A stretch of DNA of 64,000 bases from Candidatus Poribacteria bacterium (GTDB lineage: Bacteria > Poribacteria > WGA-4E > WGA-3G). The notes beneath the pieces were generated by a model, which was not told where the DNA came from, did no database searches, and saw nothing but the letters and a program-made list of their open reading frames with translations. Positions 20,176 through 48,861 of the stretch are shown one piece after another. Positions within the stretch are counted from its first letter, which is position 1; each line of letters starts with the position of its first letter. The position numbers and the translations under genes were made by a program. The DNA is taken from positions 2,293,941 to 2,357,940 of the forward strand of contig OZ220722.1 of assembly GCA_965116815.1 (NCBI GenBank). Direction: 5' to 3'.

Positions 20176-21852
20176 ATGGAACTTTCAGGAGCGCAAATCC
20201 TTGTTGACAGTCTCAAGCGGGAAGGTGTCGAATATATCTTCGGTGTGAACGGTGGCGCGGCGATGCCGATTTTCGATGCCCTCTACAGTGAGACCGAGGT
20301 TAAATTGATACCGATGCGGCATGAACAAGGGGCTTCCCACGCCGCTGATGGCTACGCACGTGCCACTGGGGATGTCGGCGTTGCGCTCGCAACTTCCGGT
20401 CCCGGCGCAACGAATCTTGTCACTGGCATCGCAACCGCTTATATGGATTCGATTCCGATGGTTGCGATTACTGGACAGGTTTTCACCCATTATATCGGTA
20501 GCGATGCCTTCCAAGAGTGTGATGTTATCGGCGTAACACGTCCGATCTGTAAACATAGTTACCTTATCACAAGTTGCGATGAGGTAGCAGATGTCGTCGC
20601 TGAAGCGTTTCACATCGCGAAGACCGGAAAACCCGGTCCCGTAATTATTGACATTGCCAAAGACGCGCAGATTCACGAAGCACTGTTTCAATATCCAGAA
20701 ACAGTTGACATCCGTAGTTACAAGCCGCAAGTTCATGGTGATCCAGCACAAATTGCAAAGGCAGCAGCACTGATTAAAGAAGCGAAACGCCCCATGCTTT
20801 ATGCCGGTGGTGGTGTTGTACTCGCCAATGCCAGTGAGGAGCTGCGGCAACTCACTCTCAAAACCCAGATTCCGATTACTGTTACATTAATGGGACTCGG
20901 CGCATTTCCCGAAACGCATCCTTTAGCGATGGAAATGCCCGGAATGCACGGTTCTTGTTGCGCTAATTACGCTTTTACCGACGCTGATCTCGTTATCGCT
21001 ATTGGCGCAAGGTTCGATGACCGCGTTACGGGTGATCTCAGTAAATTCGCACCGAACGCGAAGAAAATCCACATCGATATCGACGCGTCCTGTATTGGAA
21101 AAAATGTACCGGTGGATGTTCCGATCGTAGGTGATGCGAAGAGTGTTCTGACAGAACTGAATAAACAGGTTGAGACAGCAGACATTGACCCATGGCGCGA
21201 CCAGATTCAGGAATGGAAGCAGAAGTACCCGTTTGAGTATGAGCAGAAAGCCGATAAGGTAATGCCGCAATATGTCATTGAGCAGATTTATGAGCATTAC
21301 AGCGATGCCATTGTCGTTGCGGATGTCGGACAGCACCAGATGTGGGCGGCACAATACTTCAAATTCACCGAACCGCGGCAGTGGCTCAACTCCGGCGGTC
21401 TCGGCACGATGGGATTCAGCCTCCCCGCCGCAATCGGTGCGCAGCTCGGATGTCCGGACAAAACCGTTGTCAACATCAACGGAGACGGCTCCTATATCAT
21501 GACGATCCAAGAATTGGTGCCAGCGATTACGATGAAACTGCCGATTAAAGTTTTCATCATCAACAACATGTACCTGGGGATGGTGCGCCAGTGGCAGGAA
21601 TTGTTCCACGGCAAACGCTACTCTGCTGTCGATTACCACGATAATCCGGATTTCGCCTTGCTCGCACAGGCATTCGGTGCCACAGGGCTGCGGGTTGAAC
21701 ACCCAGACGAGGTCGAACCCGCATTACAGAAGGCGAAAGGGATTACCGATGGTCCTGTGGTTATTGATTTCATCGTTGATGAAGAGGAGAATGTGTTCCC
21801 AATGGTGCCAGCGGGTGCTGGACTTGGAGATGTTATCCGCGGGCTATCCTAA
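20176..21852 (+). CDS. ilvB: acetolactate synthase large subunit (biosynthetic, TPP/FAD-dependent)
   Basis: Full-length AHAS large subunit (GPGATNLVTGIATAYMDSIPMV, TPP-binding GDGSY...NN). The start is set at MELSGAQ behind a GAGG RBS. The ORF-track ATG at 20161 is an alternative. Confidence 0.92.
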   Translation: MELSGAQILVDSLKREGVEYIFGVNGGAAMPIFDALYSETEVKLIPMRHEQGASHAADGYARATGDVGVALATSGPGATNLVTGIATAYMDSIPMVAITGQVFTHYIGSDAFQECDVIGVTRPICKHSYLITSCDEVADVVAEAFHIAKTGKPGPVIIDIAKDAQIHEALFQYPETVDIRSYKPQVHGDPAQIAKAAALIKEAKRPMLYAGGGVVLANASEELRQLTLKTQIPITVTLMGLGAFPETHPLAMEMPGMHGSCCANYAFTDADLVIAIGARFDDRVTGDLSKFAPNAKKIHIDIDASCIGKNVPVDVPIVGDAKSVLTELNKQVETADIDPWRDQIQEWKQKYPFEYEQKADKVMPQYVIEQIYEHYSDAIVVADVGQHQMWAAQYFKFTEPRQWLNSGGLGTMGFSLPAAIGAQLGCPDKTVVNINGDGSYIMTIQELVPAITMKLPIKVFIINNMYLGMVRQWQELFHGKRYSAVDYHDNPDFALLAQAFGATGLRVEHPDEVEPALQKAKGITDGPVVIDFIVDEEENVFPMVPAGAGLGDVIRGLS

Positions 21853-21864
21853 TGATTTTAAGGG

Positions 21865-22040
21865 TCGTCAGTTATCGGTTATCAGTTACAAGAGGGTACC
21901 GTTAAACGAGGGGAAACACCCTATCAAAAACACCTCTTAACCGATGACCGAAAGGTTTTTCGGAGAAAAACCGAACCGATAACCGATAACCATAAAACCG
22001 ACAACTGAAAGCCTGCGCAGCAGGCGAACTGAAAACTAAA
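21865..22040. repeat. MITE/REP-like palindromic repeat, copy E2, inserted between ilvB and ilvN. It contains GTCAGTTATCGGTTATCAGTTACAAGAGGGT, the hairpin GGTTTTTCGGAGAAAAACC, the inverted partner AACCGATAACCGATAACC and the hairpin GCCTGCGCAGCAGGC.
   Basis: Same core and hairpin as E1 and E3. It makes a 193-nt spacer between genes that are normally adjacent. Confidence 0.6.
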
Positions 22041-25229: not shown

Positions 25230-25346
25230 AAGTGAAGTGCCTATCGTAAAATTAACAAATTGAAGGACTTATAATGGAATGGTTTGCAATTTCTATGTTA
25301 GTCATATTTCTCACAGGGCTCGGCATAGTCGCTGGGACTGCTATAA

Positions 25347-25826
25347 GTGTACTGCCAGGTCTGGGTAGGCGATATTACCTACGTCAGACTCAAGGGGCAC
25401 TTCGTCTATGTGAGTCTACTCATGGATGTCTTCACTCGCAGGATCAGAGGGTGGCAGGTGAGTCGACACCTGACCCAGCCGCTGACTTTGAGACCTTTAG
25501 AGCAAGCATTACGCCAAAGCGTCCCGGAGATCCATCACTCTGATCAAGGCGTTGAGTATCTTTCAAATGTCTATCTCTCGACGCTCACAGAGCATGGCGT
25601 TGAGATTTCTGTCGCCCGTCGCGGATGTCCTTGGGAGAACGGGTATGCTGAGAGACTCATCCGCACGCTCAAGGAGGAAGAAGTTTACCTAAATGACTAT
25701 CAGAACATTCACGAAGTGAAAGTCCGCATTGGGCATTTTATCACACAGGTGTATCATCAGAAACGCCCACATTCGGCGTTAGGGTATTTGACACCTATCG
25801 AATTCGAGCAGCAAAACTTGGATTAA
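25347..25826 (+). pseudogene. IS3-family transposase OrfB remnant (integrase catalytic core only; N-terminus and OrfA missing)
   Basis: WVGDITYV...HSDQG.EY...CPWENGYAERLIRTLKEE matches the IS3 DDE core. Only about 160 aa remain. No HTH/OrfA is left, and no obvious IRs. Confidence 0.75.
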
Positions 25827-26019
25827 CTTTGCTAATTTTTGGTCTAAATAAACGTTGGCACTTCAAAGGAATGCCTACAAAGATTAGGATTTACGCAGAT
25901 CCTATAAACGACAGATTAGTAACGGGTTAAAATCCCCAATAGATTATTAGATCGTTAGAGGAACGGACCCGTCCAAGCCAGATGTCTATGAAACAAAATT
26001 TTATGAAAGGATTCAACAA

Positions 26020-27918
26020 ATGGAAAAAAAAGAACTACCCCGGATCACAACACTGAATGAGTTTATAGAATGGGTAGAGCGGTTAAAAGAGCAAGTAGAA
26101 CAATCAAATCTCGGAAAATGTTTATTTCGAGGTCTATCAAAAAGAGAGTACTCAATAGAAGCATCCGCTTGGCGTCGATTGAAGCGTGAAGCAGAAAAAA
26201 ATAACCTTGAGATATTCCTTGAAATTAATACCAGTTTAATCAATGATGCTCGCCTGCATGAACACGACCACAGAAACGGACGTGAACTAAAGGACTTGGA
26301 AATACTTGCTGAACTCCAGCATTTCCGAGTAGCAACATGCCTGATAGACTTTACCTATAGTGCTCAAGTTGCGCTCTGGTTTGCCTGTCAATCATCTTAT
26401 AAAAATCCACCAGATTCTGAGGAATTGGCAGACGGTAAAGTTAGTGTGGTGTTTGATAATACAAGTAAAATTAAACAAATTACACCGGATTTGCTCAACG
26501 AAGAGATTAATTCCTTCTTCGAGACCAACGAAGATGGTATATATCCCCTTTATCAATGGCAGCCAAGGCAGCTGAACAACCGTATTTTTCCGCAGTATTC
26601 CGTTTTTTTATTTGGTGGTGACAGAATTATTGAACCAGATGAAGGATGCATCATTGCAGCAGGTAGTAAACAAAAAATCCTAACTTCTCTCGAAGATTTC
26701 TCACAGACTACTGAAGCAACTCTGTTTCCTGATTTTGAGGGTTTCGTGTATCAGCGAACTCAGGAAAGGCCCTACAATGTCCCTGATTATAAGGAATACG
26801 GTTATCGGGCTTACCAAAATCGTCAATACCAGGAAGCTATTACCTATTGTGACGAGGCCATTAAGAAAAATCCTGATGATGTAGAGGCTTATAAATTGCG
26901 CGGAGATGCGAAGGTTCGCCTAGAGCAGTATACAGAAGCTATTGCTGACTTTGATGACGTGCTCAACAGGGATCCTGATATGGCATCTGCCTACTACTCT
27001 AGGGGAGCTGCAAATTACTTCTTGTATCAAAACGAATCAGCCGTTGCTGACTTTGATGATGCTATCCGTTTAGACTCCAATGATAGACGTTCCTATAAAT
27101 TACGCGGAGATGTGAAGCGGGATCTTGGTCGCTTTGAGGATGCGAGGAACGATTATCAAACAGCATTGGAACTTGCTTTGCAGGTTGACGATACTTTTCT
27201 TATAGCAAGTATTACGCCTGCCCTTCATGAAATTGATTCGCGTATCACTGAAGGAGGGTATTGGACACCAGAAAGGTTTGAAGCACTAGTTCCTGAGCAG
27301 TTTAGGCAACTTTATGAAGCCAAAAACAGAGATGGAGAATTATATAGTTTGGGGGCAGATCTGCAAACGTTTTTTCATAAACAGGGTTGGGAATTAAGCC
27401 ACCGATTTAGTGTAAAGCATATTTTCTTTTTTGCTAAAGATAGACGGCTTTTTGGCATAAATCTATTTTCGTCGCTTCCAAGACTTACTTTCTGCGATGT
27501 GTCAGAAGAAGAAGCCAGAGCTATTGTCCCTCAATATGGCTTTACTGCTTACCCTCAATATTCACAATTGGTGTGTCAGCGAGGCCCGAGCGTAGAAGAC
27601 CTTCGACCACTTTTTGAATTTGTCTATAGGCAACATATAATGCCACTATGGGAAGATCAGGAAATTGTGGATGCCCTTAAGCATATTCTGGAAAATTACG
27701 ATTACTTAGAATATGATGAAGAAGCCTCAGAACGTACTAATGGATTACGGGTTAAAGTAACTCGTTTAGAGGCAAATCGCGATTTTTCCGTTACAGGTCA
27801 TATTTGTAGGGTATTAGAGCAATCTACTGGAAGACGTTTCTTCGTTCCTAGTGTTGTTGGGCACAGCTTTCAGAATTGGGAAACAGAGTGGACATATTTC
27901 ACTGTGCGTGAATGGTAA
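26020..27918 (+). CDS. FRG-domain protein fused to TPR repeats and a C-terminal unknown domain
   Basis: The N-terminal CLFRGLSKREY...ELQHFRVATCLIDFTYSAQVALWFA matches the FRG-domain signature. The central AYKLRGDAKVRLEQYTEAIADFDDVL... segment is TPR repeats. The last ~270 aa are unassigned. Confidence 0.55.
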   Translation: MEKKELPRITTLNEFIEWVERLKEQVEQSNLGKCLFRGLSKREYSIEASAWRRLKREAEKNNLEIFLEINTSLINDARLHEHDHRNGRELKDLEILAELQHFRVATCLIDFTYSAQVALWFACQSSYKNPPDSEELADGKVSVVFDNTSKIKQITPDLLNEEINSFFETNEDGIYPLYQWQPRQLNNRIFPQYSVFLFGGDRIIEPDEGCIIAAGSKQKILTSLEDFSQTTEATLFPDFEGFVYQRTQERPYNVPDYKEYGYRAYQNRQYQEAITYCDEAIKKNPDDVEAYKLRGDAKVRLEQYTEAIADFDDVLNRDPDMASAYYSRGAANYFLYQNESAVADFDDAIRLDSNDRRSYKLRGDVKRDLGRFEDARNDYQTALELALQVDDTFLIASITPALHEIDSRITEGGYWTPERFEALVPEQFRQLYEAKNRDGELYSLGADLQTFFHKQGWELSHRFSVKHIFFFAKDRRLFGINLFSSLPRLTFCDVSEEEARAIVPQYGFTAYPQYSQLVCQRGPSVEDLRPLFEFVYRQHIMPLWEDQEIVDALKHILENYDYLEYDEEASERTNGLRVKVTRLEANRDFSVTGHICRVLEQSTGRRFFVPSVVGHSFQNWETEWTYFTVREW

Positions 27919-28198
27919 CTATAAGATGAGTTTTTTCGCTCGTAAATTGACACTTAAACGAACTGCTGCTTCCATTTCCAGAGCTGGTCTTAATTGAGGT
28001 TATGGGGTTTCCGACACAGTTCCGCTTGTGAACTTTCACCGCGGAGTGCCTCAAGAACGACCCCTGCTTTAAAGTCGGTGGTGAAGTTTCTTCGTTTTCG
28101 TTTCGCCATCGGAGACTCCCTTCAATGAGATTGTTATCATATCACAATCTTGGTTTAGACAGTAGCCCAAATTTCCGATGGCAGTACATAGAATCCAG

Positions 28199-29680
28199 TT
28201 AGTTAAAGGCGTTAGCGATTAGGACGAGATCGAGGATATTAACCACTCCGTCAGCGTTAACATCTGCTTGTCCGCCTGGCTCGCCCAGTGAATTAGCAGT
28301 AAGCACTAAATCAAGGATATTGACATCCCCATCGGCGTTGATATCAAGTCTATTGTCTTTTAGGTATATCTCGCCGTCTAAGTCTGGAATGATGTGTTTG
28401 GTGCCGCCAAATCCGCTCGCTTTGCCGCTTACGTGCGATCCAAACCTGATTTCCTGCTCACTACCGCTACGGTTGTACACAACCCAACCTCGTGCGAATT
28501 CTCGGATAAATAAGCCTTCTCGATTGTCGTAAAGTTGGGATTTCGCGCCGATCGGTTCACCGAGATCGACGTCATAAAAATCATACCAGTATTTCTCGTG
28601 GGTATGACCATGAGGCACACCTAATTCATGCTCATGAGTATGACCTTCCCATATTTCGTATTGATGATTATGTGTAGGCGAAATAATACCAGGCACAAAA
28701 GATACATACCCATCAGAATGCGTGAGCCCTAACGCTATGATGGCTCGTGCTTGTTGATAGTTATTTGGTGCATTTAAGGATTCGGTTGGCATCCCCCAAC
28801 CTTCCAAGCAATTAACCTGTGGGTATCTTAAGTTGGTTTCGTACCACGATAACGCATGTTCTATACCTATCAATTCCTCGTGGGTATACCCGTCTATGCC
28901 AGAGGTAACTTCCATGAACGCACCGTTCACATAAGGAGCGGAACGTGGTATCTTGCGTGTGTTCGTGTTGACAATGATAAGAAAATCGTCGCCAACGTAT
29001 TCACGTATCCGTTTTACGAGTTCGACAATAGCGTCTGTTCTATCGCCGTGGTAGTATTTAGCGACCAGATCGCTCCCGACATCGAATACAAGTTCTTCGC
29101 TCCACCAATCCATGAAAATACCATCATGCAGTCCGCAATCAGCAATCGCTTTCGCACGTTTTGCGAAATGATCGATTGCACCTGGCAAAGTGTAATCGAT
29201 GAGATAGATATGAGACCATCCGGCATCCGTGAGCCTGTTGCCGTTCTCGTCTCTCAACCAATACTCCCAATCGTCTGGATAGTGGTCTCCGCTCACACCA
29301 TAATGGTTTAACGAGGCGATGTATAAAAAATTAGGATTAATTTCGTGCAATTCATTTATTAATCCTATATCATACTGAGTCCCACCATCAACGGTGACAA
29401 TTTGTGAGTGGTCGATATTCCAATGCAAGCCCCTAAACAACCCGCTCCAAAACAAGTCGTGGTACGAATACATCTCTTTTGTGTATCCCCATTCCCAAAT
29501 ATCATCTGGTCTGTCATGGTTAATAATACTATGGTGCCATGCACCAAAGACAGACGGGAAGGTTCGGTTTTCGACCCGACTAATCACGTTGTTCCGTTCA
29601 ACAATACATACTTCTTCGCTATAAACCAAGCCACACACTAAAAACACGAACACTGCTATCAACACTAATTTTTTAAACAT
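28199..29680 (-). CDS. secreted protein with a putative glycoside-hydrolase-like (TIM-barrel) domain and a C-terminal type-I dockerin repeat pair
   Basis: Signal peptide MFKKLVLIAVFVFLVCG. The C-terminus DINADGDVNILDLVLTANSLG...DVNADGVVNILDLVLIANAF is a duplicated dockerin Ca-binding repeat. Confidence 0.55.
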   Translation of the reverse strand: MFKKLVLIAVFVFLVCGLVYSEEVCIVERNNVISRVENRTFPSVFGAWHHSIINHDRPDDIWEWGYTKEMYSYHDLFWSGLFRGLHWNIDHSQIVTVDGGTQYDIGLINELHEINPNFLYIASLNHYGVSGDHYPDDWEYWLRDENGNRLTDAGWSHIYLIDYTLPGAIDHFAKRAKAIADCGLHDGIFMDWWSEELVFDVGSDLVAKYYHGDRTDAIVELVKRIREYVGDDFLIIVNTNTRKIPRSAPYVNGAFMEVTSGIDGYTHEELIGIEHALSWYETNLRYPQVNCLEGWGMPTESLNAPNNYQQARAIIALGLTHSDGYVSFVPGIISPTHNHQYEIWEGHTHEHELGVPHGHTHEKYWYDFYDVDLGEPIGAKSQLYDNREGLFIREFARGWVVYNRSGSEQEIRFGSHVSGKASGFGGTKHIIPDLDGEIYLKDNRLDINADGDVNILDLVLTANSLGEPGGQADVNADGVVNILDLVLIANAFN

Positions 29681-29681
29681 T

Positions 29682-30815
29682 TTATTTCTCAATTGCCTCA
29701 ACATTCGCACGAGGCAGTGTCATCTGTTGACCGTCCGCAAGTTCAACCCGCAATACCCGCACCTGTGCCTCTGTCTCCAAGTTCTGAAGTTCTACTGGTA
29801 GTTCCGTAACACGTCCCAATTTGCCGAAATGCGGTTCCCGAATAATCCGCACCGAGCTGCCAATCTCTAAAATACCCTCGATGCTTCCATCCTGCTCCTC
29901 TTCCACCGTTTCCGCAGTGTCTGATACCAATGGAATCACTATCTCCGGACGGACGACCCCAGCACGAATCTGTGTCGCGCCGTTGATGGAGGTTTTCATA
30001 CCCTCCCGTGCTTTCAAGAGCGCGAACGTCTGCTCCGCCATCGCTATCTCTCCGAACCCCTCCGTGATAACGAGTGTGATGCCGATCTCCTCAGAACCGG
30101 TAATCGCAACGCCGAGTTCATAGCCGAGAAGTTTCCGCAGATCCGCGTCATCGATACCACCAGCAATGATGCCCTTGACCCCCTGCTGGATCGCCTTCTG
30201 AATTGCATCGGTCGTAACAAGCGAACCACCAACCAAGATATTATCTTGATGTTCAGGTAATATCTGTTCAGCGGTCAGTTCATCACCCGACGATTGGGAG
30301 ATGACGACTAAGTTTCCAACTGTCTCACCGCCGACACCGAAGATGCCTTGAATATAAGTGCCGTAAGTTTCTACTGTGACACCTTCGTTTGGGACGGTCT
30401 CCGTTACTGTGCCATTTGTGTAAGCTTTGACTTCCACTGGGATGGGCGGTTCACGAAGGATAACCTGTCCTGTGACATCGGACACGGCTTCAATCGTGCC
30501 GTCGATCGGTGACCGCGCTTGCGATTTGAAAAGCCCGAAAAGCCCTTTTGTCGTGGCGATAATCTCGTCTTCTGAGACGGCTTCACCTACAGATTTAAGC
30601 ATATATTCGGCAACTTCTTCAGGTGGGACACTCAGCAGGTTGGCAACGTTTAACAGCTGAACATTGCCCGGCAGATCTGCTTTCGCGATAACATCTTCTG
30701 CCTCAACTGTCGCGCCGGTTTCGACGAGGACCTCGCCTTCAAGCGGGAGCCTGCGTTCCTTTTGTATTGTCATTCCCTCGGTAACCTTAAGACCGGGGGT
30801 ATATGCATGCGCCAT
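29682..30815 (-). CDS. conserved hypothetical cytoplasmic protein (Gly/Ala/Val/Glu-rich; no family recognised)
   Basis: Clean 377-aa ORF with good codon usage. It abuts the dockerin gene and is probably co-transcribed with it. Confidence 0.5.
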   Translation of the reverse strand: MAHAYTPGLKVTEGMTIQKERRLPLEGEVLVETGATVEAEDVIAKADLPGNVQLLNVANLLSVPPEEVAEYMLKSVGEAVSEDEIIATTKGLFGLFKSQARSPIDGTIEAVSDVTGQVILREPPIPVEVKAYTNGTVTETVPNEGVTVETYGTYIQGIFGVGGETVGNLVVISQSSGDELTAEQILPEHQDNILVGGSLVTTDAIQKAIQQGVKGIIAGGIDDADLRKLLGYELGVAITGSEEIGITLVITEGFGEIAMAEQTFALLKAREGMKTSINGATQIRAGVVRPEIVIPLVSDTAETVEEEQDGSIEGILEIGSSVRIIREPHFGKLGRVTELPVELQNLETEAQVRVLRVELADGQQMTLPRANVEAIEK

Positions 30816-31860: not shown

Positions 31861-31929
31861 TCCAACAGATTGTAGACACCCACAATTGGCGTTTCTTTTT
31901 GTTAAAATTATCAAACGTTTCCGAGTCTA

Positions 31930-33415
31930 AAACCGCCTTGCTTTAGCTGGGGGATACAGACTCGCTCTTGTGAATTAGACCAAAGCGTTTTTTGAAAAAA
32001 ACACTTGACATTTCTACGAAAATATGTTTTAATAGATGTATCACGTTGGCAGACATACCAAGCGTAACCGCAAGGTTACGTGTCTGCCTCCCCACTTGGT
32101 AGGGGTTAAAAGCGTGATACGTGAACATCCATGAAAACCTATAAACTGAAAATCCCTCACACTCAACAGTTAGACGCTCTGAATGCTGCGTCTGCGTCGG
32201 TTTGGAACGAGTGCCTGACTCTCAAATCCGTTTGGGATTATGCGCACGGCTATCGAAGCACCGGACGACTTGATCCACAATGTGAGTTGTGGATGGACAA
32301 GCAACTTTCCAAGTCCCAATCCCTACACTCACAGAGTATCCAAGCTGTCCGTGAGCGGTATTTCAAGAACAGAAAAGCCTATCGTGTGTTACGTAGGAAC
32401 GGCAATTCAACCGCCAAACCGCCGCATAAGTCTAAACGCTTTCAAACAACGACTTGGAAAAAGTCAGCCATCCGTTTCAAAGAAACATTGCTTGGTAAAG
32501 TCTTGATACTCTCTAATGGTAAAGGCACCCCTGCTTTAGAGATACCGCTTCCAAAGTTGTTTAACCTTTCTTTGACCCCTAATATTGTAATTGTGCACCT
32601 TGTCTATACTCGTGGACAATACGAACTTCATTTTGTCTATAACACCGAGACACCTGAAGTCTCTAAGGTTTCCGATGGCGTTGTGGGCGTTGATATTGGC
32701 GAGATACACCCGATTGTCAGCCATGACGGACATAACACACTGATTTTCAATGGGCGGTATATCCGAAGCCTATACCGATTGAGAAACAAGGTGATTGCCT
32801 CCTTTGGTAAAAAGATTGATAGGTGTAAACGCTATTCCAAACGTTGGTGGCATCTCGTGCGTAGGAAGTGGAAACGTCTTCAAAGGATTGACAATCAAAT
32901 CAAGGATGCGCTCCATCAACACACCACAAAGTTTGTGAAAAAATGTGGTGAGTCGGGTATAGGCACGATTGTCATTGGAGACCTAACGGGTATACGAGAC
33001 GATATCAACTATGGCAAACGTGCAAATCAGAAACTTCACCAGTGGGCTTTTGGTAAGGTTGCCGAGTTGATAACCTACAAAGCGAAATCTTTGGGTATCA
33101 AGGTTGACTTGATAGATGAGGCACATACCTCACAGACATGCCCAAAATGTGGCAACCGAAAGAAACCTACAAACCGAAACTACACCTGCAAATGCGGATT
33201 TAACTTTCACCGTGACGGTGTAGGTGCTATAAACATTCGCAAAAAGTATCTTGGACACTTCGGTGTCCCAGTAGTGGCGGACATGGATACCCAGGTTTCC
33301 ATGAAAATGACACCGCCCGTTGGATTTCGTCTCGAAGTCAAACGTTGCTCTGCCTGAGCAGAGAATGTTCCCACGAGGAACAAAAGAATCACCCTTGCTT
33401 TAGCTGGGTGAGTAT
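31930..33415 (+). mobile_element. IS200/IS605-family (IS1341-like) tnpB-only insertion sequence with direct-repeat-type ends
   Basis: The 16-mer CCTTGCTTTAGCTGGG occurs in direct orientation at about 31936 and about 33393, flanking tnpB. The LE carries a long hairpin GGCAGACAT...GTAACCGCAAGGTTAC...TGTCTGCC. The RE has the hairpin CTCTGCCTGAGCAGAG. No tnpA is present. Confidence 0.7.
32131..33357 (+). CDS. tnpB: TnpB (OrfB) RNA-guided endonuclease/transposase-accessory protein, RuvC-like plus Zn finger
   Basis: RuvC motifs VVGVDIGEIHP, IGDLTGIRDD and DEAHTSQTCPKCG, with the Zn finger CPKCGN...CKCG. Confidence 0.85.
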   Translation: MKTYKLKIPHTQQLDALNAASASVWNECLTLKSVWDYAHGYRSTGRLDPQCELWMDKQLSKSQSLHSQSIQAVRERYFKNRKAYRVLRRNGNSTAKPPHKSKRFQTTTWKKSAIRFKETLLGKVLILSNGKGTPALEIPLPKLFNLSLTPNIVIVHLVYTRGQYELHFVYNTETPEVSKVSDGVVGVDIGEIHPIVSHDGHNTLIFNGRYIRSLYRLRNKVIASFGKKIDRCKRYSKRWWHLVRRKWKRLQRIDNQIKDALHQHTTKFVKKCGESGIGTIVIGDLTGIRDDINYGKRANQKLHQWAFGKVAELITYKAKSLGIKVDLIDEAHTSQTCPKCGNRKKPTNRNYTCKCGFNFHRDGVGAINIRKKYLGHFGVPVVADMDTQVSMKMTPPVGFRLEVKRCSA

Positions 33416-33416
33416 G

Positions 33417-34886
33417 TCAATTAACATCAATTCTCATAAACGCCAAGACTGCCGCCATGAATAGGAGGAGTGCGAGCGAGACTAACAACGTTAGATCCAA
33501 CAGTGCGCCTCCGAAGGTGATACCGACAGTTAACTGTTCTGAAAACTTAGGAATGCTATTAAAGGGTACCGGTTTTTGGGATAACCCTTCTTTTACAAGA
33601 TAAACGTGGTAACTGTCGTTGTCTCCTCTATCTTCCGATTTAATAAAGTCGACGAACTGCCGTCTGTAGCGTCGGGCGTGTTGGACGAATCGTTTATGTC
33701 TGGCGAATCCTGTACCTGCCAAAGATTCTACAGCATATTTATAGATAGCCGCCGGAGAGAGTCGCGTAATTTGTTGCGTAAATTCAACCTGTGCGAACTG
33801 TTTATTGAGGTGTTCATCATTGATGCTGCTCTTGGCATCAGCATGTTCGTTTAGATAGTCAGCCCACATCCTTAACACCTCAATTTTAGGTGGCGTGTCG
33901 GAAGGCGAACCTGTTCTGTAAAGTTTGTCTCCTTCTTTGTGCCGAGTATCAATTTCGTCTTCTCTTGCTTTCTGTATGCGAGAAATTTCGCTTCTTGAGG
34001 ACACTTGCTGGAAACCGCTTGCCAATACACCCATAGTGTTCGGGATAAGCACCACAAACACAATCCAAATTAACAGCAACGTCAGCAAACTGCTTGACGA
34101 AGTAGAAAATTGGCTTGAGATAAACAGCCCAAGCCATAAGAATATTGAGATGTAGACAGCGGAAATAACAAAGATTATCCCCATCCGCACCCATTCGCCT
34201 CCGCTAAGCGACACCAATCTTGACGCATTGACGATCATTAAATTCAGTAGTACCGCAATAAACAACGGAATCAGGATCGTGAGAAACGCACCCGTGAATT
34301 TTCCCAGAAGCACGGTCGCGCGGGACACGGAATTAGACATGAGCAAGCTTAACGTGCCTGTTTCACGTTCTCCAGAGATGGCATCGTAAGTGAACAGAAT
34401 CGCCATAAAACTCATTACCAATCCGATGATGAATGTCCAATCCAATTCCGTGAAGTTTGGCAGCGAATCGTTTTTTCGAGATGTATGCTGTGGGTACTGA
34501 AGCCACCAGTTTGCTGACCAAGAGTAGTTGAAACTAAAATCAGGTGTCGTCATACCTATACCATAGCCGCCGCTTGGAGCCCCTTCAACTCGCTTGGGTA
34601 AGTTTGCATCCTCTCCCATTGCAATGAAGGTTAATGGGCTAACCGGTTTGTGTAGATACCCTGGGCCTTTTACTGCAAGTTCACTTAAATTACTGCTTCT
34701 CGTTTTGAGTGAGTCGATGGCTTGGTTGGTATCTTCGGAATATTCCGCGATCCTTCGCGGATATTGACTGCTCACGAATATCACGGCATTCATCACCATC
34801 AACACCATTACCAGAATCAGCGTGAGTGCGAATCGAAAACGCGTCAAATTATCAAGGATTTCTCGTTTTGCTATGTGCCAGATCAT
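33417..34886 (-). CDS. ABC-2-type transporter permease-like membrane protein (large extracytoplasmic loops)
   Basis: N-terminal TM, 4-5 clustered TMs and a C-terminal TM. It is a paralog of the adjacent gene. No ABC ATPase is nearby. Confidence 0.5.
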   Translation of the reverse strand: MIWHIAKREILDNLTRFRFALTLILVMVLMVMNAVIFVSSQYPRRIAEYSEDTNQAIDSLKTRSSNLSELAVKGPGYLHKPVSPLTFIAMGEDANLPKRVEGAPSGGYGIGMTTPDFSFNYSWSANWWLQYPQHTSRKNDSLPNFTELDWTFIIGLVMSFMAILFTYDAISGERETGTLSLLMSNSVSRATVLLGKFTGAFLTILIPLFIAVLLNLMIVNASRLVSLSGGEWVRMGIIFVISAVYISIFLWLGLFISSQFSTSSSSLLTLLLIWIVFVVLIPNTMGVLASGFQQVSSRSEISRIQKAREDEIDTRHKEGDKLYRTGSPSDTPPKIEVLRMWADYLNEHADAKSSINDEHLNKQFAQVEFTQQITRLSPAAIYKYAVESLAGTGFARHKRFVQHARRYRRQFVDFIKSEDRGDNDSYHVYLVKEGLSQKPVPFNSIPKFSEQLTVGITFGGALLDLTLLVSLALLLFMAAVLAFMRIDVN

Positions 34887-43281: not shown

Positions 43282-43539
43282 TTAATAAGGATCCGTGATA
43301 GTCTCATTCACAGTCTCACGCCATGAGTCTTCAAATAGCATACGGAAAGACATTGTTTTGTTGTTGGTTGAAATGATCTCCATCGTGCCGTGTTGTGTAG
43401 CGTTTCGATATAATTTTTCTAACGATTTGATAAGTTTCTGTTTGTAGGTGGTGTCGGTGTTACCTTCGAGGTGTTGTCCTTTGGTCTCGAAACCAACGCC
43501 CTTCGTTTCATATCTGAATAATGATTTCCTCATGGTCAA
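43282..43539 (-). CDS. HicA-like toxin (YcfA family), probable
   Basis: The N-terminus RKSLFRYETKGVGFETKGQHL resembles E. coli HicA KQSEFRRWLESQGV..GSNHL. It overlaps the upstream HicB-like gene. Confidence 0.45.
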   Translation of the reverse strand: MTMRKSLFRYETKGVGFETKGQHLEGNTDTTYKQKLIKSLEKLYRNATQHGTMEIISTNNKTMSFRMLFEDSWRETVNETITDPY

Positions 43540-43729
43540 CTTTCGCAGCCTTGATAGCCTCTTTACTATTGTAATCTATCATTTCGAGAAGCATAATTCG
43601 TAGTGCTTCAAGCAATTCGTCCTTCGTCCGTTCTTGACCATTTACGCCGGGAATTTCCTGTATCCAACCCATCCACCAGCCTTCGTCCTGTTGGATAACA
43701 GCGGTATAAGTTTGTGTCAGCGGTTCCAT
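43508..43729 (-). CDS. HicB-like antitoxin (UPF0150 family)
   Basis: YTAVIQQDEGWWMGWIQEIPGVNGQERTKDELLEALR is the UPF0150/HicB N-domain signature. Confidence 0.55.
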   Translation of the reverse strand: MEPLTQTYTAVIQQDEGWWMGWIQEIPGVNGQERTKDELLEALRIMLLEMIDYNSKEAIKAAKVDHEEIIIQI

Positions 43730-43904
43730 CCTCCTTTAAGAGGGTACAACAACTTTAGACTTAAGAATCAAGCCACCCTTTTCATCTTTTATGAAATTTC
43801 CGTGTGTAGTCGGTGAGGAAGTCTTGTTTCTCTTGCCGTTTGATATCCTCACAGAGTGCGCGTAAATCGTACTGAAAAGAAGCAGCCCATTCGTCGCGAA
43901 TCTG

Positions 43905-44180
43905 GTGAATTTCCTCAATACCGACCAGTATCGTGGATACAATGAGATCGGTAAACAGATGAAGCACGAAACGATGAATCGAAGTGAGCAGTGGGAGCCC
44001 AATGGTATCCATACCAACACAATCGAAGGCTTCTGGTCTTTCGTCAAACGGGCGTGGTATGGATCACATCACCACTATTCAACAGGATACACGCCCTTGT
44101 ATCTCGCAGAGGCAGGCTATAAGTATAACTACCGAGAAACCAACATCTTTGAGAAGTTTCTCAAGCAAAGCATGCAGTGA
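43905..44180 (+). pseudogene. IS1595-family (ISXO2-like) transposase C-terminal fragment
   Basis: TDQYRGYNEIG...H..MN....W..NGIHTNTIEGFWSFVKR matches the IS1595 DDE C-terminal region. The upstream two-thirds are absent. Confidence 0.6.
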
Positions 44181-44320
44181 AGAACGGATACAAGTGGAAA
44201 CTCAAAAAGGAAAATTACAACTTTCTCAAGTCCAAAACGACTAATTCCGATAACGCAAGTTGCTACCTTTTTATGCATATAGCACTCCGCTGGAGTGCAA
44301 TCGCACAAATACGCTATTTT

Positions 44321-44530
44321 CTATAGATATATCACCCCGCTGGGGTGGGGAAAAGACAAAAAACCTTTCCGAAGTGGGCAAAATCTGTTAGTAGCAACTT
44401 GGATTAAATTATGACGATGTTTCCAAGAACGTCGCAAATCCAGAACAAGCATGTCTTCAAGGGTTTCCTTTTCAGGTATCCACTCGCCATTTTCAACACA
44501 GTTCGGTTCATAGAAGAATCCGTTTTTCAT
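44321..44530 (-). CDS. small hypothetical protein (good AAGGAG RBS; C-terminal part may be spurious)
   Basis: MKNGFFYEPNCVENGEWIPEKETLEDMLVLDL... behind a strong RBS. The ORF runs into a hairpin-rich region. Confidence 0.3.
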   Translation of the reverse strand: MKNGFFYEPNCVENGEWIPEKETLEDMLVLDLRRSWKHRHNLIQVATNRFCPLRKGFLSFPHPSGVIYL

Positions 44531-44750
44531 TAATCATACTCCTTGTAAAAAATGCCCGGTAGGTGCGGTTTTGCGGCGTACACGCCCAAATGCGACCTGC
44601 ATACTAACCGCACCGGATTTTAGACACAAACTTTGCATATCCCAAAATCTATTATTCAGATTCAGTAAGAGTATCCGATTCATCGGCATATCCCATAAAT
44701 TCTCGCATAAATGTATCGATTGTCTATTTTGTTAAGTTCAGAAATTAATC

Positions 44751-45620
44751 CTATTTCTTTGCCTCTGTTGTGAAATCAATGATGCGTATAACCCCCCAGT
44801 CGGCAGGTTCCCAATTCCGTGCCGCATCTGCCCATCGAAGTTGTACTCTATAGCGCTCTCCATGCCGTAACCAAAGGCCTTCACCCGGTAATCTCAAAAG
44901 GATTATACGCTTACCATCTATCAACATTGTCCATTTCATATCAATCTGGCGCGTGTTATTCCAGAGTTTCACGTTCGCGCTATCAATATCCTCGTCAAAG
45001 TCAAACACAAAACGTTCTGTGTCTTTAGGGACATTTATGTCCCCATGTCCGACACTACTTCTGATCATTTGGGGGGCTCTATTGTCTCCTTTCTTTGTTG
45101 TGAATGTAATTAGAATGGTGCGCTTATTTCCCTCAGTGTCTTCGACATCCCCGGATATTTCATATTGTCCGTCGGTTTTTAAATTAATCACGTTTCCAAG
45201 GGGTGTGAGAACAACTTTCTTGCCATTAACAATCCGTTTCCAACGAAGACTCTGTCTAAAGTTGTCGTGGTTTTTGTGGATTTGGATATTCGATTTTGCA
45301 ACATCTTCATCGAAAGTCAAGGTGATGCTATTCAAACGTATATGCACGTTTCTTTCACCGTCCGAGATGCTGCTTTCTACGAGTTTCGGACCAAAGATAT
45401 CAAAAACAGGTTCAGGTTCAGGTTCATCTACAATAGGTTCTATAATAGGAACTGCCGGATCTGGTTGTGGGACTAAAGGTTGGGATTGTGCTTCTGTATC
45501 AGGTTCCTCTATCACAACAGGTGTCGCAAAAATGCTTTGTGTGCCTTCGTGATCCCCGCTATCGACAGAACAGCCGATCACACAGGCAATGAGTATAGAC
45601 ATTAAGAGTGTTTTTATCAT
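44751..45620 (-). CDS. hypothetical lipoprotein (Ig-like/beta-rich?)
   Basis: Lipobox LIACVIGCS. The Pro/Glu-rich linker suggests a surface location. Confidence 0.45.
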   Translation of the reverse strand: MIKTLLMSILIACVIGCSVDSGDHEGTQSIFATPVVIEEPDTEAQSQPLVPQPDPAVPIIEPIVDEPEPEPVFDIFGPKLVESSISDGERNVHIRLNSITLTFDEDVAKSNIQIHKNHDNFRQSLRWKRIVNGKKVVLTPLGNVINLKTDGQYEISGDVEDTEGNKRTILITFTTKKGDNRAPQMIRSSVGHGDINVPKDTERFVFDFDEDIDSANVKLWNNTRQIDMKWTMLIDGKRIILLRLPGEGLWLRHGERYRVQLRWADAARNWEPADWGVIRIIDFTTEAKK

Positions 45621-45631
45621 CGTTTCCTCTG

Positions 45632-46309
45632 TTAGTGAAAATTGAGCGCAATGTTATAGACAATCTCAGAACTCTCGAAAGAGAATTCAATAGCACCGAT
45701 GAGTGTGATTGTCGGGGACATCTCTATTTCAATTCCGGCTTCTCCAGAGAATAGGTTAGCTGTGTCATCAATAAGAAGCTCACGAGTGGTTGATACGTTA
45801 CGCCAGATATTTGAATAGAAGACACCAAAATAAGGTCTGAGAAAGTTGTTAGGTTCATGTATGATACCGAGACCACCTGCGAGTATCGCATTTACTGAAT
45901 GCTGTGGTAGTCCGCTGCTATGGATTTGGTGATAGTGTGCCCGAAGCCCAGCTCTAAAAAAGTATTGTAATGTTGGCATGTTTCCTAATGGTCCTATGTG
46001 GGTCAATCGTAGTTCAGCAGACGGTGATGGTGGTATATCTAACGGTTCTTTACTGTCAATATGGATGAACCCGACGCTTGGGATTAGTGATACCATTGAA
46101 CTGTGCGTAAAAGCATAATCAAGGCTTATTCTGATGGTTTCTGCTCTAAAAACTTGGTTTTCGCGCCTGCGTTTTGGGAATTCGTAACGCTGTAATCCCA
46201 ATCCGAGTGCCCCTTTTCCTTCAGGTAATGCCTTTAAACGTGTCTGGGCTTCTGATGCCGGTATTAAGAAAAAGATAAAAATTAGGGTGAATATGCAATA
46301 TTTTATCAT
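45632..46309 (-). CDS. putative outer-membrane beta-barrel protein
   Basis: Signal peptide, alternating amphipathic strands and a C-terminal aromatic residue (..NFH). Confidence 0.4.
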   Translation of the reverse strand: MIKYCIFTLIFIFFLIPASEAQTRLKALPEGKGALGLGLQRYEFPKRRRENQVFRAETIRISLDYAFTHSSMVSLIPSVGFIHIDSKEPLDIPPSPSAELRLTHIGPLGNMPTLQYFFRAGLRAHYHQIHSSGLPQHSVNAILAGGLGIIHEPNNFLRPYFGVFYSNIWRNVSTTRELLIDDTANLFSGEAGIEIEMSPTITLIGAIEFSFESSEIVYNIALNFH

Positions 46310-46632
46310 TCAATTATCATCCTTTGGCATTTGGTATTCCTCTTAAAAAAGTGCAAAAGTGCAAAGTGGTGGACAGGGTATCCACGTCTTTGTGTTAGGT
46401 TAGTTCCAATACATACTCTCTTCTTTTTGTCGACGGAAAATTTCACTTGGATATGCCGCTGAATTTCAGAAGATGTAACATATCGTGTTTTCGGGACAGG
46501 TGATGTTTTGGGGCGTGATGGATTTCCTAATGGTTCCGGAAAATATTTAGAATCATTAGGTTTACCGCTCGCGTCCAGAATATCCTCTTGATATGATACA
46601 TAACCCATGAAAATCCCCCTTGCCGAGTTCAA
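46306..46632 (-). CDS. hypothetical protein
   Basis: 108-aa ORF whose start overlaps the OMP-like gene's stop. Confidence 0.3.
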   Translation of the reverse strand: MNSARGIFMGYVSYQEDILDASGKPNDSKYFPEPLGNPSRPKTSPVPKTRYVTSSEIQRHIQVKFSVDKKKRVCIGTNLTQRRGYPVHHFALLHFFKRNTKCQRMIIE

Positions 46633-46824
46633 ATTGAATTCGGATCAATAACAAACTGAAGGTTTGACCACTTTCTGTTTTCGATAGTCTATTTGGATTT
46701 ACCAGTCCAGTCCTTTATCCCCCTACCATGGTGGAAAGGTGGCAAAACGGAGAGAGTCTCCGATTCATGGTAGTGCCACCTTAGAACTGGTTACAATACT
46801 ATGACGTGAGTTCAACTTAAAAGT

Positions 46825-47421
46825 TTAGAGAACATCATACGTAGGAGCGTTCTCTCCACTGTACTTCAGATTAGCACCTTTTTTGTACCACCCGACATCG
46901 TCTTCGAGCCAATCATCAATTTCATCATCATGTAAAGGCACTTCACGTAAAAGTGCAGATCTAGCAACTTTCTCATAAACGAGCACGCTCTCATGCGTAG
47001 TGGTGAAACCTCGATTGTCACGACTTCCTTTTAGATTAAGAACTGCTGCAAGGCATACAATAAACGTATCAGCCCCAAATATTTCGTCCATGATCATTCG
47101 CAAATGATGCTGTTCGTGATGGTCAATAGAAACGAAAATAACGCCATCATCGGAAAGCAATTCGCGCAGCAAATGCAGGCGCGGCCACATCATGCAAAGC
47201 CATTTGTCATGGAGTTCAAGGTCTTCACCATCAACCGGACTGTTTTGAGCAAACCACGCTTGCATCAGCGGGCTATTCACTCGGTCATTGTACACCCAAG
47301 CCTGACTGCCTGTATTATATGGCGGATCAATGTAGATGCACTTGATCTTGCCAGCGTATTTTGGGAGAAGTGCCTTTAGTGCATGTAGGTTGTCGCCGTG
47401 GATAATGAGGTTATCATTCAA
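46825..47421 (-). pseudogene. N6-adenine/N4-cytosine DNA methyltransferase fragment (Type III Mod / beta-class-like), C-terminally truncated
   Basis: DNLHALKAL...IKCIYIDPPYNTG (motif IV DPPY) and HESVLVYEK. It stops after 198 aa, with no TRD or motif I. It begins with TTG directly after a poly-C tract. Confidence 0.7.
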
Positions 47422-47433
47422 CGGAGATTTTTC

Positions 47434-47446
47434 GGGGGGGGGGGGG
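47434..47446. repeat. homopolymeric G13 tract (C13 on the coding strand), 12 nt 5' of the Mod fragment start
   Basis: Seen directly in the sequence (ttcGGGGGGGGGGGGGtaaac). An upstream ATG at about 47546 would read through it into the Mod frame with 12 or 15 Cs rather than 13. Confidence 0.8.
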
Positions 47447-47563
47447 TAAACACGAATTAAGTGATTTTTCTGTGTCTATCTGTAGGGTGCGGACGGGGAC
47501 GGTGAGGTGGTGTCCGTATATGAATTGTTTGCCTTTGAAGTCGAGCGTGGGCATAGAGACTCC

Positions 47564-48412
47564 TTAAAAAATCTTATTCATATCAACAGGAAAACCTGCA
47601 TTTTTGATTTCTTGACCGAGTTTCAATTTCCAGTCTCCGCTATCCATAGGCACGTAGATTACGCCATCAATATCTGAGGGTTTCTCTATTTTTCCTTTGA
47701 AGAGCGGACATACTCGTTCACGACCCAGTTTTCCCATGAAATAACCGAGTTCAAAAACAACGTTCTGACGGGCTCTCGGTTTGCTTTCGTTCTCAATTTT
47801 ATCTTTTAAGGCACCAATATCGTCAGGTGTGAGTAGAACGATTGCAAATCCTGCATTACCGGCGTATTTTTCAAGCTTCTCAATGATCGTTAGTCCACTA
47901 CTGGGCTATTCGTGAAGGATAGTTACCTTTAAGCCCAATCTCTCTACAAACCTCGCAACGGTTTCTTTAACCCCATCATCGCGTCCGTGTACGATGAATA
48001 CTTCGTTACCCGAGATGAGCGGAAATGTGTCTGATGATTCATCGTACAGTTCAAGTTGATCCTGAATTCCCATTAGGTAATTGATATCCCTGTCTACATT
48101 TTCTCTGTATCTAATCAAATCCTTTGAAAACTCGACTCTTTCCTCCCTATTTGGAGACGAAACTATTCCCATAGGGTAAAAAATGCAGGCTCTTTCGTAT
48201 TCTTCTGCAACTAACGTCCCATCAAATAGGTGCAACAAAAGGTTTTTATTATGCCGTGACCAGTTTCCATGATCATTTCGAGCACGACTATATTCATCTC
48301 GTGCATCAATTTGTCTATCGCGGAGTTGTTGCCCTTTATCAATTTGCTCTTGTATTTTCTTCTCGGTTCCCTCTCTACTCACAAGCAATTTTGGAAGCGT
48401 TTTATCTTTCAT
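47564..48412 (-). pseudogene. TIR-like (COG4271/DUF2321-type, Cap12/PycTIR-like) protein with a novel ~130-aa N-terminal domain, interrupted by one in-frame TAG
   Basis: The ORF-track piece 47906-48412 ends ...[31 protein letters not shown]. The same frame continues [29 protein letters not shown]...RARQNVVFELGYFMGKLGRERV... to a TAA at about 47564. The paralog has CAG (Q) where this gene has TAG. Confidence 0.6.
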
Positions 48413-48861
48413 AGTTTCTCCTCAATAGGCAGTCCAGCGTTTTGCATGCCTTGACTGAGTTTCAGTTTCCAATCATCTGCACCATCCATGGGTACATAGA
48501 CTACGTTAGGAATATATGATGGTAATTCAACACCTTCTTTGTAGAGGATACACACTCGTTTATCGCCTAACCCCCCGAGGAGATAACCGAGCTCAAAGAT
48601 AACGTTTTGGCGGGCCCTAGGTTTCCGTTGTCCTGTAGCTTTTGAGGACCCAACATCGTCCGGTGTCAACAAGACAATTGCGAAACCCGCTTCATCTGCC
48701 TGTTCTTCAAACTTATCAATGATTGTTCGTCCCTTACTGGGTTGTTCGTCAAGAACGGTTGGCTTTAAACCCAACGTCTCTACAAATTTGGAGACGGCTG
48801 TTTTGGCTTCATCATCATGCCCATGGGCGATAAACACTTTCGATTGAGTTTTCACATTCAT
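48409..48861 (-). CDS. stand-alone TIR-like domain protein (COG4271/DUF2321-type)
   Basis: [20 protein letters not shown]...[18 protein letters not shown]...[10 protein letters not shown]...[32 protein letters not shown]. Its stop overlaps the next gene's ATG (ATGA). Confidence 0.65.

Follow-up and report, generated by a model that had tools for sequence, protein, structure and literature searches.

An FRG-TPR protein with a two-module C-terminal tail in a variable chromosomal slot of Candidatus Poribacteria, a candidate conflict protein

The first discussion of the Frg domain is said to be that of Burroughs and Aravind in 2020. In Iyer et al. 2022 (PMC9503650) Frg is classed in the ADP-ribosyltransferase (ART) superfamily and predicted to be an NADase-type antiviral effector. 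An FRG protein, as typically annotated, is a solo domain of about 270-340 aa, such as those on plasmids. Here we describe a 632-aa FRG protein encoded in 64,000 nucleotides of a Candidatus Poribacteria genome (GenBank assembly GCA_965116815.1, contig OZ220722.1, forward strand positions 2,293,941 to 2,357,940); this whole stretch is referred to as the window. The protein resembles the families known as Pfam PF08867 and PADLOC PDC-S15 in its matches to their hidden Markov models (HMMs), in its motifs and in the mobile or defence-type contexts of the family, but it adds four TPR units and two further modules to the solo domain.

Already on record, then, are the family itself, the placing of Frg among the ARTs and the status of FRG proteins as defence candidates. 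Between core genes of Candidatus Poribacteria lies a hypervariable chromosomal slot of which the 632-aa gene is one allele, and our view, held with evenly balanced confidence, is that this allele encodes a functional, cytoplasmic, single-chain conflict protein of the FRG family, most likely an anti-phage one.

Domain architecture of the 632-aa protein

The gene is an intact open reading frame (ORF; all coordinates are collected in Table 1), and its N-terminal 250 residues hold an extended form of the FRG domain. An earlier reading of the DNA, made from the letters alone and called the original prediction below, had proposed such a domain and named a search for an FRG HMM match as its test. The match was found: Pfam FRG PF08867 covers residues 33-127 with 56.5 bits (cut-off 25), and 13 PDC-S15 models of PADLOC match the ORF (best E 2e-22, residues 3-242), along with a single weak match to PDC-S18 at residues 437-537. 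The family motifs [FY]RG, QH, LxD and RxxxQ are all present in the N-terminal 250 residues, with F36-R37-G38 followed by an LQHF...LIDFTYSAQVALWFA block that includes Q100-H101 and L108-I-D110-F-T112. When FRG proteins of Actinomycetota, Bacteroidota, Beta- and Gammaproteobacteria plasmids and one P2-like phage were aligned, eight residues, all polar or glycine, were invariant (R37, G38, R52, Q100, H101, D110, R188 and Q192). Invariance of such residues across several phyla and a phage suggests that the FRG domain is an enzyme.

Known ARTs have catalytic triads of the H-Y-E or R-S-E type, with the catalytic Glu on strand 5. In an AlphaFold2 (AF2) model of residues 1-250 (predicted local distance difference test, pLDDT, 85), the strand-1 residue R37 and, following strand 2, T112/S114 stand where an ART would be expected to have its Arg and Ser/Thr. 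In Foldseek searches with the FRG model the top places went to cholera toxin A1, Arr, pertussis toxin, TreTu and RES, all of them as non-significant matches with a best E of 0.36. The modeled domain may weakly be taken as a remote and divergent ART-like fold, in agreement with the classification of Iyer et al. 2022. It may thus resemble at the fold level the NAD+-using effectors of the ART superfamily (RES toxins, DarT and the NADase-type ART effectors classed by Iyer et al. 2022), and for Frg too a role as an immunity effector has been predicted. On a Variovorax plasmid (NZ_LR594669.1, locus L051, 3296-5807) a solo FRG gene adjoins nadC and a gene for a phnN-type ribose-1,5-bisphosphokinase, and this neighbourhood of phosphoribosyl pyrophosphate (PRPP) and NAD biosynthesis is anecdotal support for an NAD-related FRG chemistry.

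The FRG domain is followed by four 34-aa TPR units, detected by TPR HMMs above their cut-offs at residues 255-390, in line with the three to four units of the original prediction. Three units are found in many relatives, and the alignment shows P0015, P0016 and the class of about 500 aa to lack one 34-aa unit.

For the remainder of the protein, residues ~395-632, the claim that it is unassigned held in that no match was found in Pfam, NCBIfam or PHROGs, whereas its length is about 240 aa and not 270. Nor did the tail draw a match from Pfam when E values up to 1 were allowed, or from the PDB by sequence or by profile. When residues 405-632 were searched exhaustively with HMMER, 1.84 billion cluster representatives yielded no more than 120 matches, and these fall into two clean sets, one at query positions 7-136 and the other at 137-227. 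What had been taken for a single unknown C-terminal domain is therefore two separable, independent modules, here called midC and Cext.

The midC module was modeled by AF2 with a pLDDT of 91, and as modeled it is a double-wing fold like that of YdhG (DUF1801), YjbR (DUF419) and the C-terminal domain of T4 MotA. The likeness does not extend to the sequence level: the tail and its standalone homologs have no Pfam match at E up to 1, DUF1801, DUF419 and MotA_activ included. Unlike these families, midC is found as a C-terminal appendage of defence-type proteins, namely GmrSD_N+GmrSD_C proteins (P0228, P0235), an HSDR_N nuclease (P0218) and HicB (P0217). Further midC proteins have N-termini that look, by eye only and without HMMs, PD-(D/E)xK-like, Rx4H (HEPN-like), or like a helix-turn-helix (HTH) plus T5orf172. 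By analogy with the fold, and from the fusions to GmrSD and HSDR_N, midC probably binds nucleic acid, possibly DNA. A homolog search with a midC profile returned short unannotated proteins only, and a profile search labelled A4 returned TPR proteins only, because TPR columns dominated the profile. In locus L046 a variant of midC lies between ThsB_TIR and Mod genes.

Matches to Cext are mostly standalone proteins of 90-104 aa. P0234 has the module fused straight onto FRG-TPR and P0203 has it fused to an HTH, and a Cext-containing gene of 181 aa stands two genes upstream of an FRG-TPR gene in L042-L044. P0020 has a weak HSDR_N_2-like segment (E 1e-3, below the cut-off) in the place of Cext.

Measured against four homologs, the ratio of nonsynonymous to synonymous substitution rates (dN/dS) lies at 0.14-0.39 in every one of the four modules, and the gene is thus maintained by purifying selection. 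With this ratio and an intact frame, the reading of the ORF as a pseudogene or relic was rejected. GC content over the gene is 0.405-0.41, as compared with ~0.45-0.53 in the adjoining 1-kb windows. A scan for sigma-70 promoters and terminators was uninformative (9 sites versus 5.8 expected).

The family, its chromosomal slot and its type III neighbours

The original prediction held that the combination of FRG, TPR and an unknown C-terminal domain may be new. A protein search, however, gave more than 1000 matches, essentially all of the best 120 of which carry FRG and TPR, and hundreds of the FRG+TPR database proteins also have midC. With more than 1000 such proteins in the databases, and with FRG proteins already modelled in PADLOC as PDC-S15, FRG+TPR is a common, lineage-expanded architecture rather than a new one. 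Full-length relatives make up ~17 clusters (60-87% identical, 588-640 aa); many others of ~500-520 aa share everything up to residue ~540, and still others consist of FRG and TPR only. A plasmid or phage origin was rejected, as PLSDB gave no DNA match and the protein matches were distant for plasmids (23-32% identity) and weak for phages. Two of these distant genes have neighbourhoods or positions of their own. On a Hymenobacter plasmid (L050, 5001-7027) a DUF262 (GmrSD-like) gene comes directly after the FRG gene, downstream of it. In the P2-like phage Peduovirus P22H1 (L047, 320-1684) the right end of the genome, which in such phages is the site of exclusion genes, encodes a protein of 454 aa that matches FRG weakly (E 8e-4).

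Scanning one genome per species for a pattern yielded 26 loci that encode relatives, of which 24 are from Candidatus Poribacteria metagenome-assembled genomes (MAGs) and one each from a Latescibacteria and a gammaproteobacterial MAG. FRG-TPR genes are heavily expanded in Candidatus Poribacteria and tandem paralogs are common. This distribution, the massive expansion into tandem arrays, the TPR-protein enrichment reported for sponge-symbiont genomes, and the secreted bacterial ART toxins as nearest folds of the FRG domain would all suit a symbiosis factor, that is, a "eukaryote-like" TPR protein whose toxin-type ART domain acts on proteins of the sponge host as part of the TPR/ankyrin expansions of sponge symbionts. 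Nevertheless, no N-terminal hydrophobic signal, signal peptide or recognisable secretion domain is visible in the 632-aa sequence, and the neighbours of the family are restriction-modification (R-M), TIR, NACHT, GmrSD and HEPN genes and not secretion systems. The tail domain is moreover common to restriction nucleases and HicB, and FRG proteins occur also on plasmids of soil bacteria, with a weak match in a P2-like coliphage protein. We consider the symbiosis factor very unlikely; for sponge-symbiont biology, at least the FRG-TPR expansion would be set apart from the usual "eukaryote-like protein" reading.

Five related loci have the same gene order as the window, ilvB-ilvN-ilvC-GNAT-FG-GAP on one side of a slot and a 377-aa gene (minus strand), PhyH and ABC-2 on the other. 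At the protein level the flanks are 80-97% identical to those of the window, whereas the occupant of the slot is 49-65% identical or replaced. In the window the slot holds the 632-aa gene, in L006-L009 a 588-aa FRG-TPR3-midC-Cext protein gene (64.5% identical), in L020 a 516-aa FRG-TPR gene (49% identical) plus a Mod gene, and in L023 an FRG gene at which the contig ends. In L010-L014 and L045 only a helix+midC protein of 181-183 aa is encoded, and there is no FRG remnant upstream of it. The slot was occupied in every relative examined. The DNA of the 632-aa gene is 91% identical to the copy at the non-syntenic locus L001 as compared with 75-79% to the syntenic L006 copy, and the nearest relatives differ between modules (L001 and L002 for the FRG domain, L001 and L006 for Cext), a mosaic that implies recombination among alleles or paralogs.

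Outside the slot the family keeps different company. Around the closest homolog, P0001 (87% aa and 91% nt identity), is a defence island that comprises HsdR, AAA_15/21, NACHT, GmrSD_N, a cNMP-binding CAP12-PCTIR TIR protein and two further FRG-TPR paralogs. After P0009 and P0012 come small ORFs, followed in turn by N6_N4_Mtase and ResIII genes, with Hypoth_Ymh, HEPN_AbiV or transposase genes interleaved. A Mod and/or Res gene of type III R-M stands directly beside the FRG-TPR gene in 13 of the 20 informative loci, i.e. those of the 26 with enough flanking sequence to judge, nearly always immediately downstream and on the same strand, with gaps of about -100 to +600 bp in most. The adjoining Mod is an N6_N4_Mtase protein (sometimes with TypeIII_RM_meth) and the Res a ResIII protein (once with RE_endonuc); the 111 neighbour ORFs of L029-L041 were classed by ad hoc Mod/Res HMMs built from the first batch. 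As a crude control, one Mod fragment was found among the other 47 ORFs of the window. Consistent embedding in core metabolic operons, which the original prediction had named as refuting it, was not seen; the homologs occur in defence islands, next to Mod or Res and as tandem paralogs. Its suggestion of mobile or defence-type contexts applies to these homologs, but the window copy sits in a conserved core slot and not in a mobile island.

The same neighbours could be explained if FRG-TPR were not a suicide effector but a subunit of type III R-M with accessory or regulatory duties, which would use its FRG enzyme and a DNA-binding tail to modify DNA, Mod or Res, for example by an ADP-ribosyl mark or through restriction control, with the window copy orphaned by loss of mod and res. 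In L017, L022, L029, L034 and L035 the next gene downstream is a Mod gene that runs in the same direction and often overlaps, in L018, L025 and L041 it is a Res gene, and in L020 FRG-TPR and Mod share the very slot of the window. In its fold midC is like the double-wing domains that bind DNA, and some ART-fold matches, such as Scabin, are DNA-modifying enzymes. On the other hand, canonical type III systems require Mod and Res alone, and FRG-TPR genes are found without either in the window, L001, L006, L026, L027, L031, L032 and L036, where purifying selection persists. The FRG proteins of plasmids, and the weak match in the P2-like phage, are solo genes as well. An R-M subunit is for these reasons an unlikely description of FRG-TPR.

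IS3 fragments and the neighbouring genes of the window

Table 1. Features of the FRG locus and its surroundings in the window.
Feature	Position	Strand	Evidence
IS3 OrfB C-terminal fragment, integrase/DDE core, 159 aa	25347-25826	+	NCBIfam transpos_IS3; Pfam rve, rve_3, rve_2
IS3 right end, terminating ...GGCACTTCA (CA terminus)	25827-25865	+	Homology to the ends in L001, L002 and L004 stops at 25865/25866
FRG-TPR-midC-Cext ORF, 632 aa, intact	26020-27918	+	ORF list, Pfam, PADLOC
FRG domain, extended form, residues 1-250	26020-26769	+	Pfam FRG, PDC-S15, invariant residues
Four TPR units, residues ~255-390	26782-27189	+	Pfam TPR_1, TPR_2, TPR_8, TPR_11 and others; 102-bp DNA periodicity
midC domain, residues ~411-545, alpha+beta double-wing (as modeled)	27250-27654	+	Fold of the AF2 model
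Cext, residues ~548-632 and stop codon, small alpha/beta module	27661-27918	+	HMMER (query 137-227), fusions
IS3 OrfA N-terminal pseudogene (MAKRKRRNFTTDFKAGVVLEALRGESSQAELCRKPHNLN*DQLWKWKQQFV)	27957-28109	-	Translation; Pfam HTH_Tnp_1
IS3 left end, inverted repeat TGTACTGCCATCGG... from 28188 (given also as TGTACTGCC...)	28110-28188	-	Sequence, match to L001
GHL15+dockerin secreted-protein gene	28199-29710	-	Pfam
377-aa ORF	29682-30815	-	Synteny
TnpB element (OrfB_IS605 and Cas12f1-like TNB)	31912-33420		
Degraded defence locus	43333-48861	-	

The remnant of an insertion sequence (IS) of the IS3 type that had been predicted immediately upstream of the FRG-TPR gene was confirmed: the 159-aa ORF matches positions 217-369 of the 369 positions of NCBIfam transpos_IS3 (E 9e-52) and Pfam rve, whereas the N-terminal ~216 aa of OrfB, and OrfA, are missing from it. 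It is not the case, however, that only the DDE core survives, since an N-terminal pseudogene of OrfA and the left end of the element lie downstream of the gene. The pseudogene, read from 28109 to 27957, has 50 codons with one in-frame stop, matches HTH_Tnp_1 (E 3e-8, 34.2 bits, cut-off 24.1) and breaks off exactly at 27956, where the homology to other FRG-TPR cassettes ends. Over 49 bp the left end matches L001 9788-9836 at 92% identity, and 10 of 14 bases match as an inverted repeat when the left end (28188) is compared with the right end (25865). A contiguous IS3, with OrfA HTH and OrfB DDE parts between TG...CA repeats, was not found, the FRG gene parting the two scraps, and there are no further copies of this IS3 type elsewhere within the window. 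Dead pieces of a single IS3 type flank the 632-aa gene, and they are so arranged that they cannot transpose.

Ends of this IS3 type directly adjoin FRG-TPR genes at three loci besides the window, namely L001 (9788-9935), L002 (11925-12066) and L004 (11903-12007). In L001 they form an element of ~148 bp resembling a miniature inverted-repeat transposable element (MITE), with left and right end joined. The recurrence may reflect an insertion preference or co-mobility. A composite IS3 transposon that carries the 632-aa gene was not supported, as both scraps are dead and the upstream one turns its outer end to the gene while the downstream one turns its truncated interior. An inversion was likewise not supported, as it would require that the gene was formerly opposite in orientation to all its syntenic relatives.

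The IS3 ends in these four loci (the window, L001, L002 and L004), the closer DNA match to the unrelated-locus L001 copy than to the syntenic one, the mosaic of module similarities and the drop in GC over the gene could together be read as signs of selfish, hitch-hiking cargo, i.e. a fast-recombining gene that spreads with IS3 and is kept by addiction or chance with no current cellular role. This is hard to reconcile with IS3 copies that are dead fragments in a non-transposable arrangement, with purifying selection on all four modules, and with a slot that is filled in every relative. We regard cargo of this kind as very unlikely. The window copy, as a conflict protein, is a solo version of the family with IS3 debris on both sides.

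As regards the other neighbours, Pfam identified GNAT, an FG-GAP propeller, GHL15+dockerin, the 377-aa ORF, PhyH, TnpB and ABC-2 permeases, and the original prediction had correctly listed GHL15+dockerin, the 377-aa ORF without a family, PhyH and TnpB among these. Its accessory island of 25.3-33.4 kb did not survive comparison with the five related loci, where the 377-aa and PhyH genes are syntenic, conserved core neighbours with 84-91% identity. The 377-aa ORF itself is 85-88% identical in the five relatives, and no sequence match to it was found in Pfam, NCBIfam, PHROG, PADLOC or the PDB; its product is a conserved core protein and not island cargo. Insertions specific to the window are limited to the GHL15-dockerin gene, TnpB and the IS3 scraps. 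The GHL15-dockerin gene, located between the IS3 left end and the 377-aa gene, is counted as such because it is absent from all five syntenic Poribacteria loci, and the TnpB element is an insertion as compared with the relatives, where the genes after PhyH are HAD/ABC-2 genes or, with nothing between, ABC-2 genes. A predicted repeat copy between the 377-aa gene and PhyH does exist as a match, but one of only ~40 bp: the stretch 30850-30940 matches 21852-21905, in the ilvB-ilvN intergenic region, imperfectly and in both orientations, and is probably a short palindromic intergenic motif.

Elsewhere in the window a degraded defence locus contains two CAP12-PCTIR TIR-domain ORFs (48409-48861 and 47906-48412), a frameshifted N-terminal fragment of a type III Mod (46825-47554) that is 53% identical to the Mod beside P0009, and a C-terminal scrap of Res (43333-43506). 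PADLOC, run over 47 window ORFs, gave PDC-S35 models on two ORFs (E 3e-62), a Csx1-like match (E 2e-30) and one subtilase match.

Proposed working and known parallels

In the proposed working, the N-terminal FRG domain would be the effector, a divergent ART-like enzyme that consumes NAD+ or transfers from it. The four TPRs and the two tail modules would keep this effector inactive and sense a trigger, and midC, the domain in common with GmrSD, HSDR_N-type (restriction-endonuclease-like) nucleases and HicB, would bind nucleic acid. Once triggered, the effector might shut down the infected cell or modify a target. The control of an NAD+-using effector by TPRs and a nucleic-acid-binding module is what we infer from the parts. 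Since most related FRG-TPR genes abut type III mod/res genes in the same direction, the family is, by analogy, probably a companion or back-up to type III restriction, following a logic like that of PrrC. A more far-reaching proposal, and a doubtful one, is that FRG-TPR is a third, unrecognised component of an immune module coupled to type III R-M, in which an NAD+-dependent effector would be activated via TPR and midC when restriction fails or is inhibited, its alleles turning over in a dedicated hotspot of the Poribacteria.

Several points weigh against the conflict-protein reading. The strand-5 stretch of the FRG domain is Q192-Y-S194, with only Q192 invariant, and the catalytic Glu of [QE]xE is not evident; because ARTs of the R-S-E type carry Glu there, a canonical ART mechanism of FRG is not established. 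DNA binding by midC is taken from fold analogy alone. The Mod/Res linkage was counted on 26 loci of one phylum and without a matched random-gene control. The window copy has no adjoining Mod or Res and sits among housekeeping-type genes, the nearest Mod fragment, that of the degraded locus, being 19 kb off. Finally, the literature searched held no experimental evidence for any FRG protein, phage protection included. The evidence as a whole nonetheless weighs against an R-M subunit, a symbiosis factor and selfish cargo.

In the searchable literature we did not find a description of the FRG-TPR-midC-Cext architecture, of midC as an appendage common to GmrSD, HSDR_N, HicB and FRG proteins, of the linkage of FRG-TPR to type III R-M, or of the Poribacteria slot. 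The finding would be ordinary if the FRG protein were just another uncharacterised defence-island gene. FRG is a widespread domain, a predicted NAD+-using immune effector and a PADLOC candidate, and this locus and its relatives give handles for testing it: a short list of family-wide invariant residues, a series of architectures at one slot (midC alone, FRG-TPR, FRG-TPR plus Mod, and FRG-TPR-midC-Cext), and a repeated operonic association with type III R-M genes, from which an assay system suggests itself. In addition, midC is flagged as an undescribed accessory domain of GmrSD, HSDR_N-type nucleases, HicB and FRG proteins.

Two known systems offer parallels. Like the FRG-TPR genes, PrrC/EcoprrI has a putative toxic effector gene embedded in or abutting an R-M cluster, which suggests guarding or back-up of restriction. 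In contrast to FRG-TPR, with its type III Mod/Res partners, PrrC is an anticodon nuclease linked to type I R-M, and a functional coupling of this kind is pure inference for FRG-TPR. The TIR/TPR pairs BcTir/BcTpr (bioRxiv 10.1101/2023.05.26.542521) likewise combine an NAD+-related effector with a TPR part thought to sense or regulate. Their effector fold is TIR, whereas the 632-aa protein has FRG in its place and unites effector and TPRs in a single polypeptide with the additional double-wing and Cext modules.

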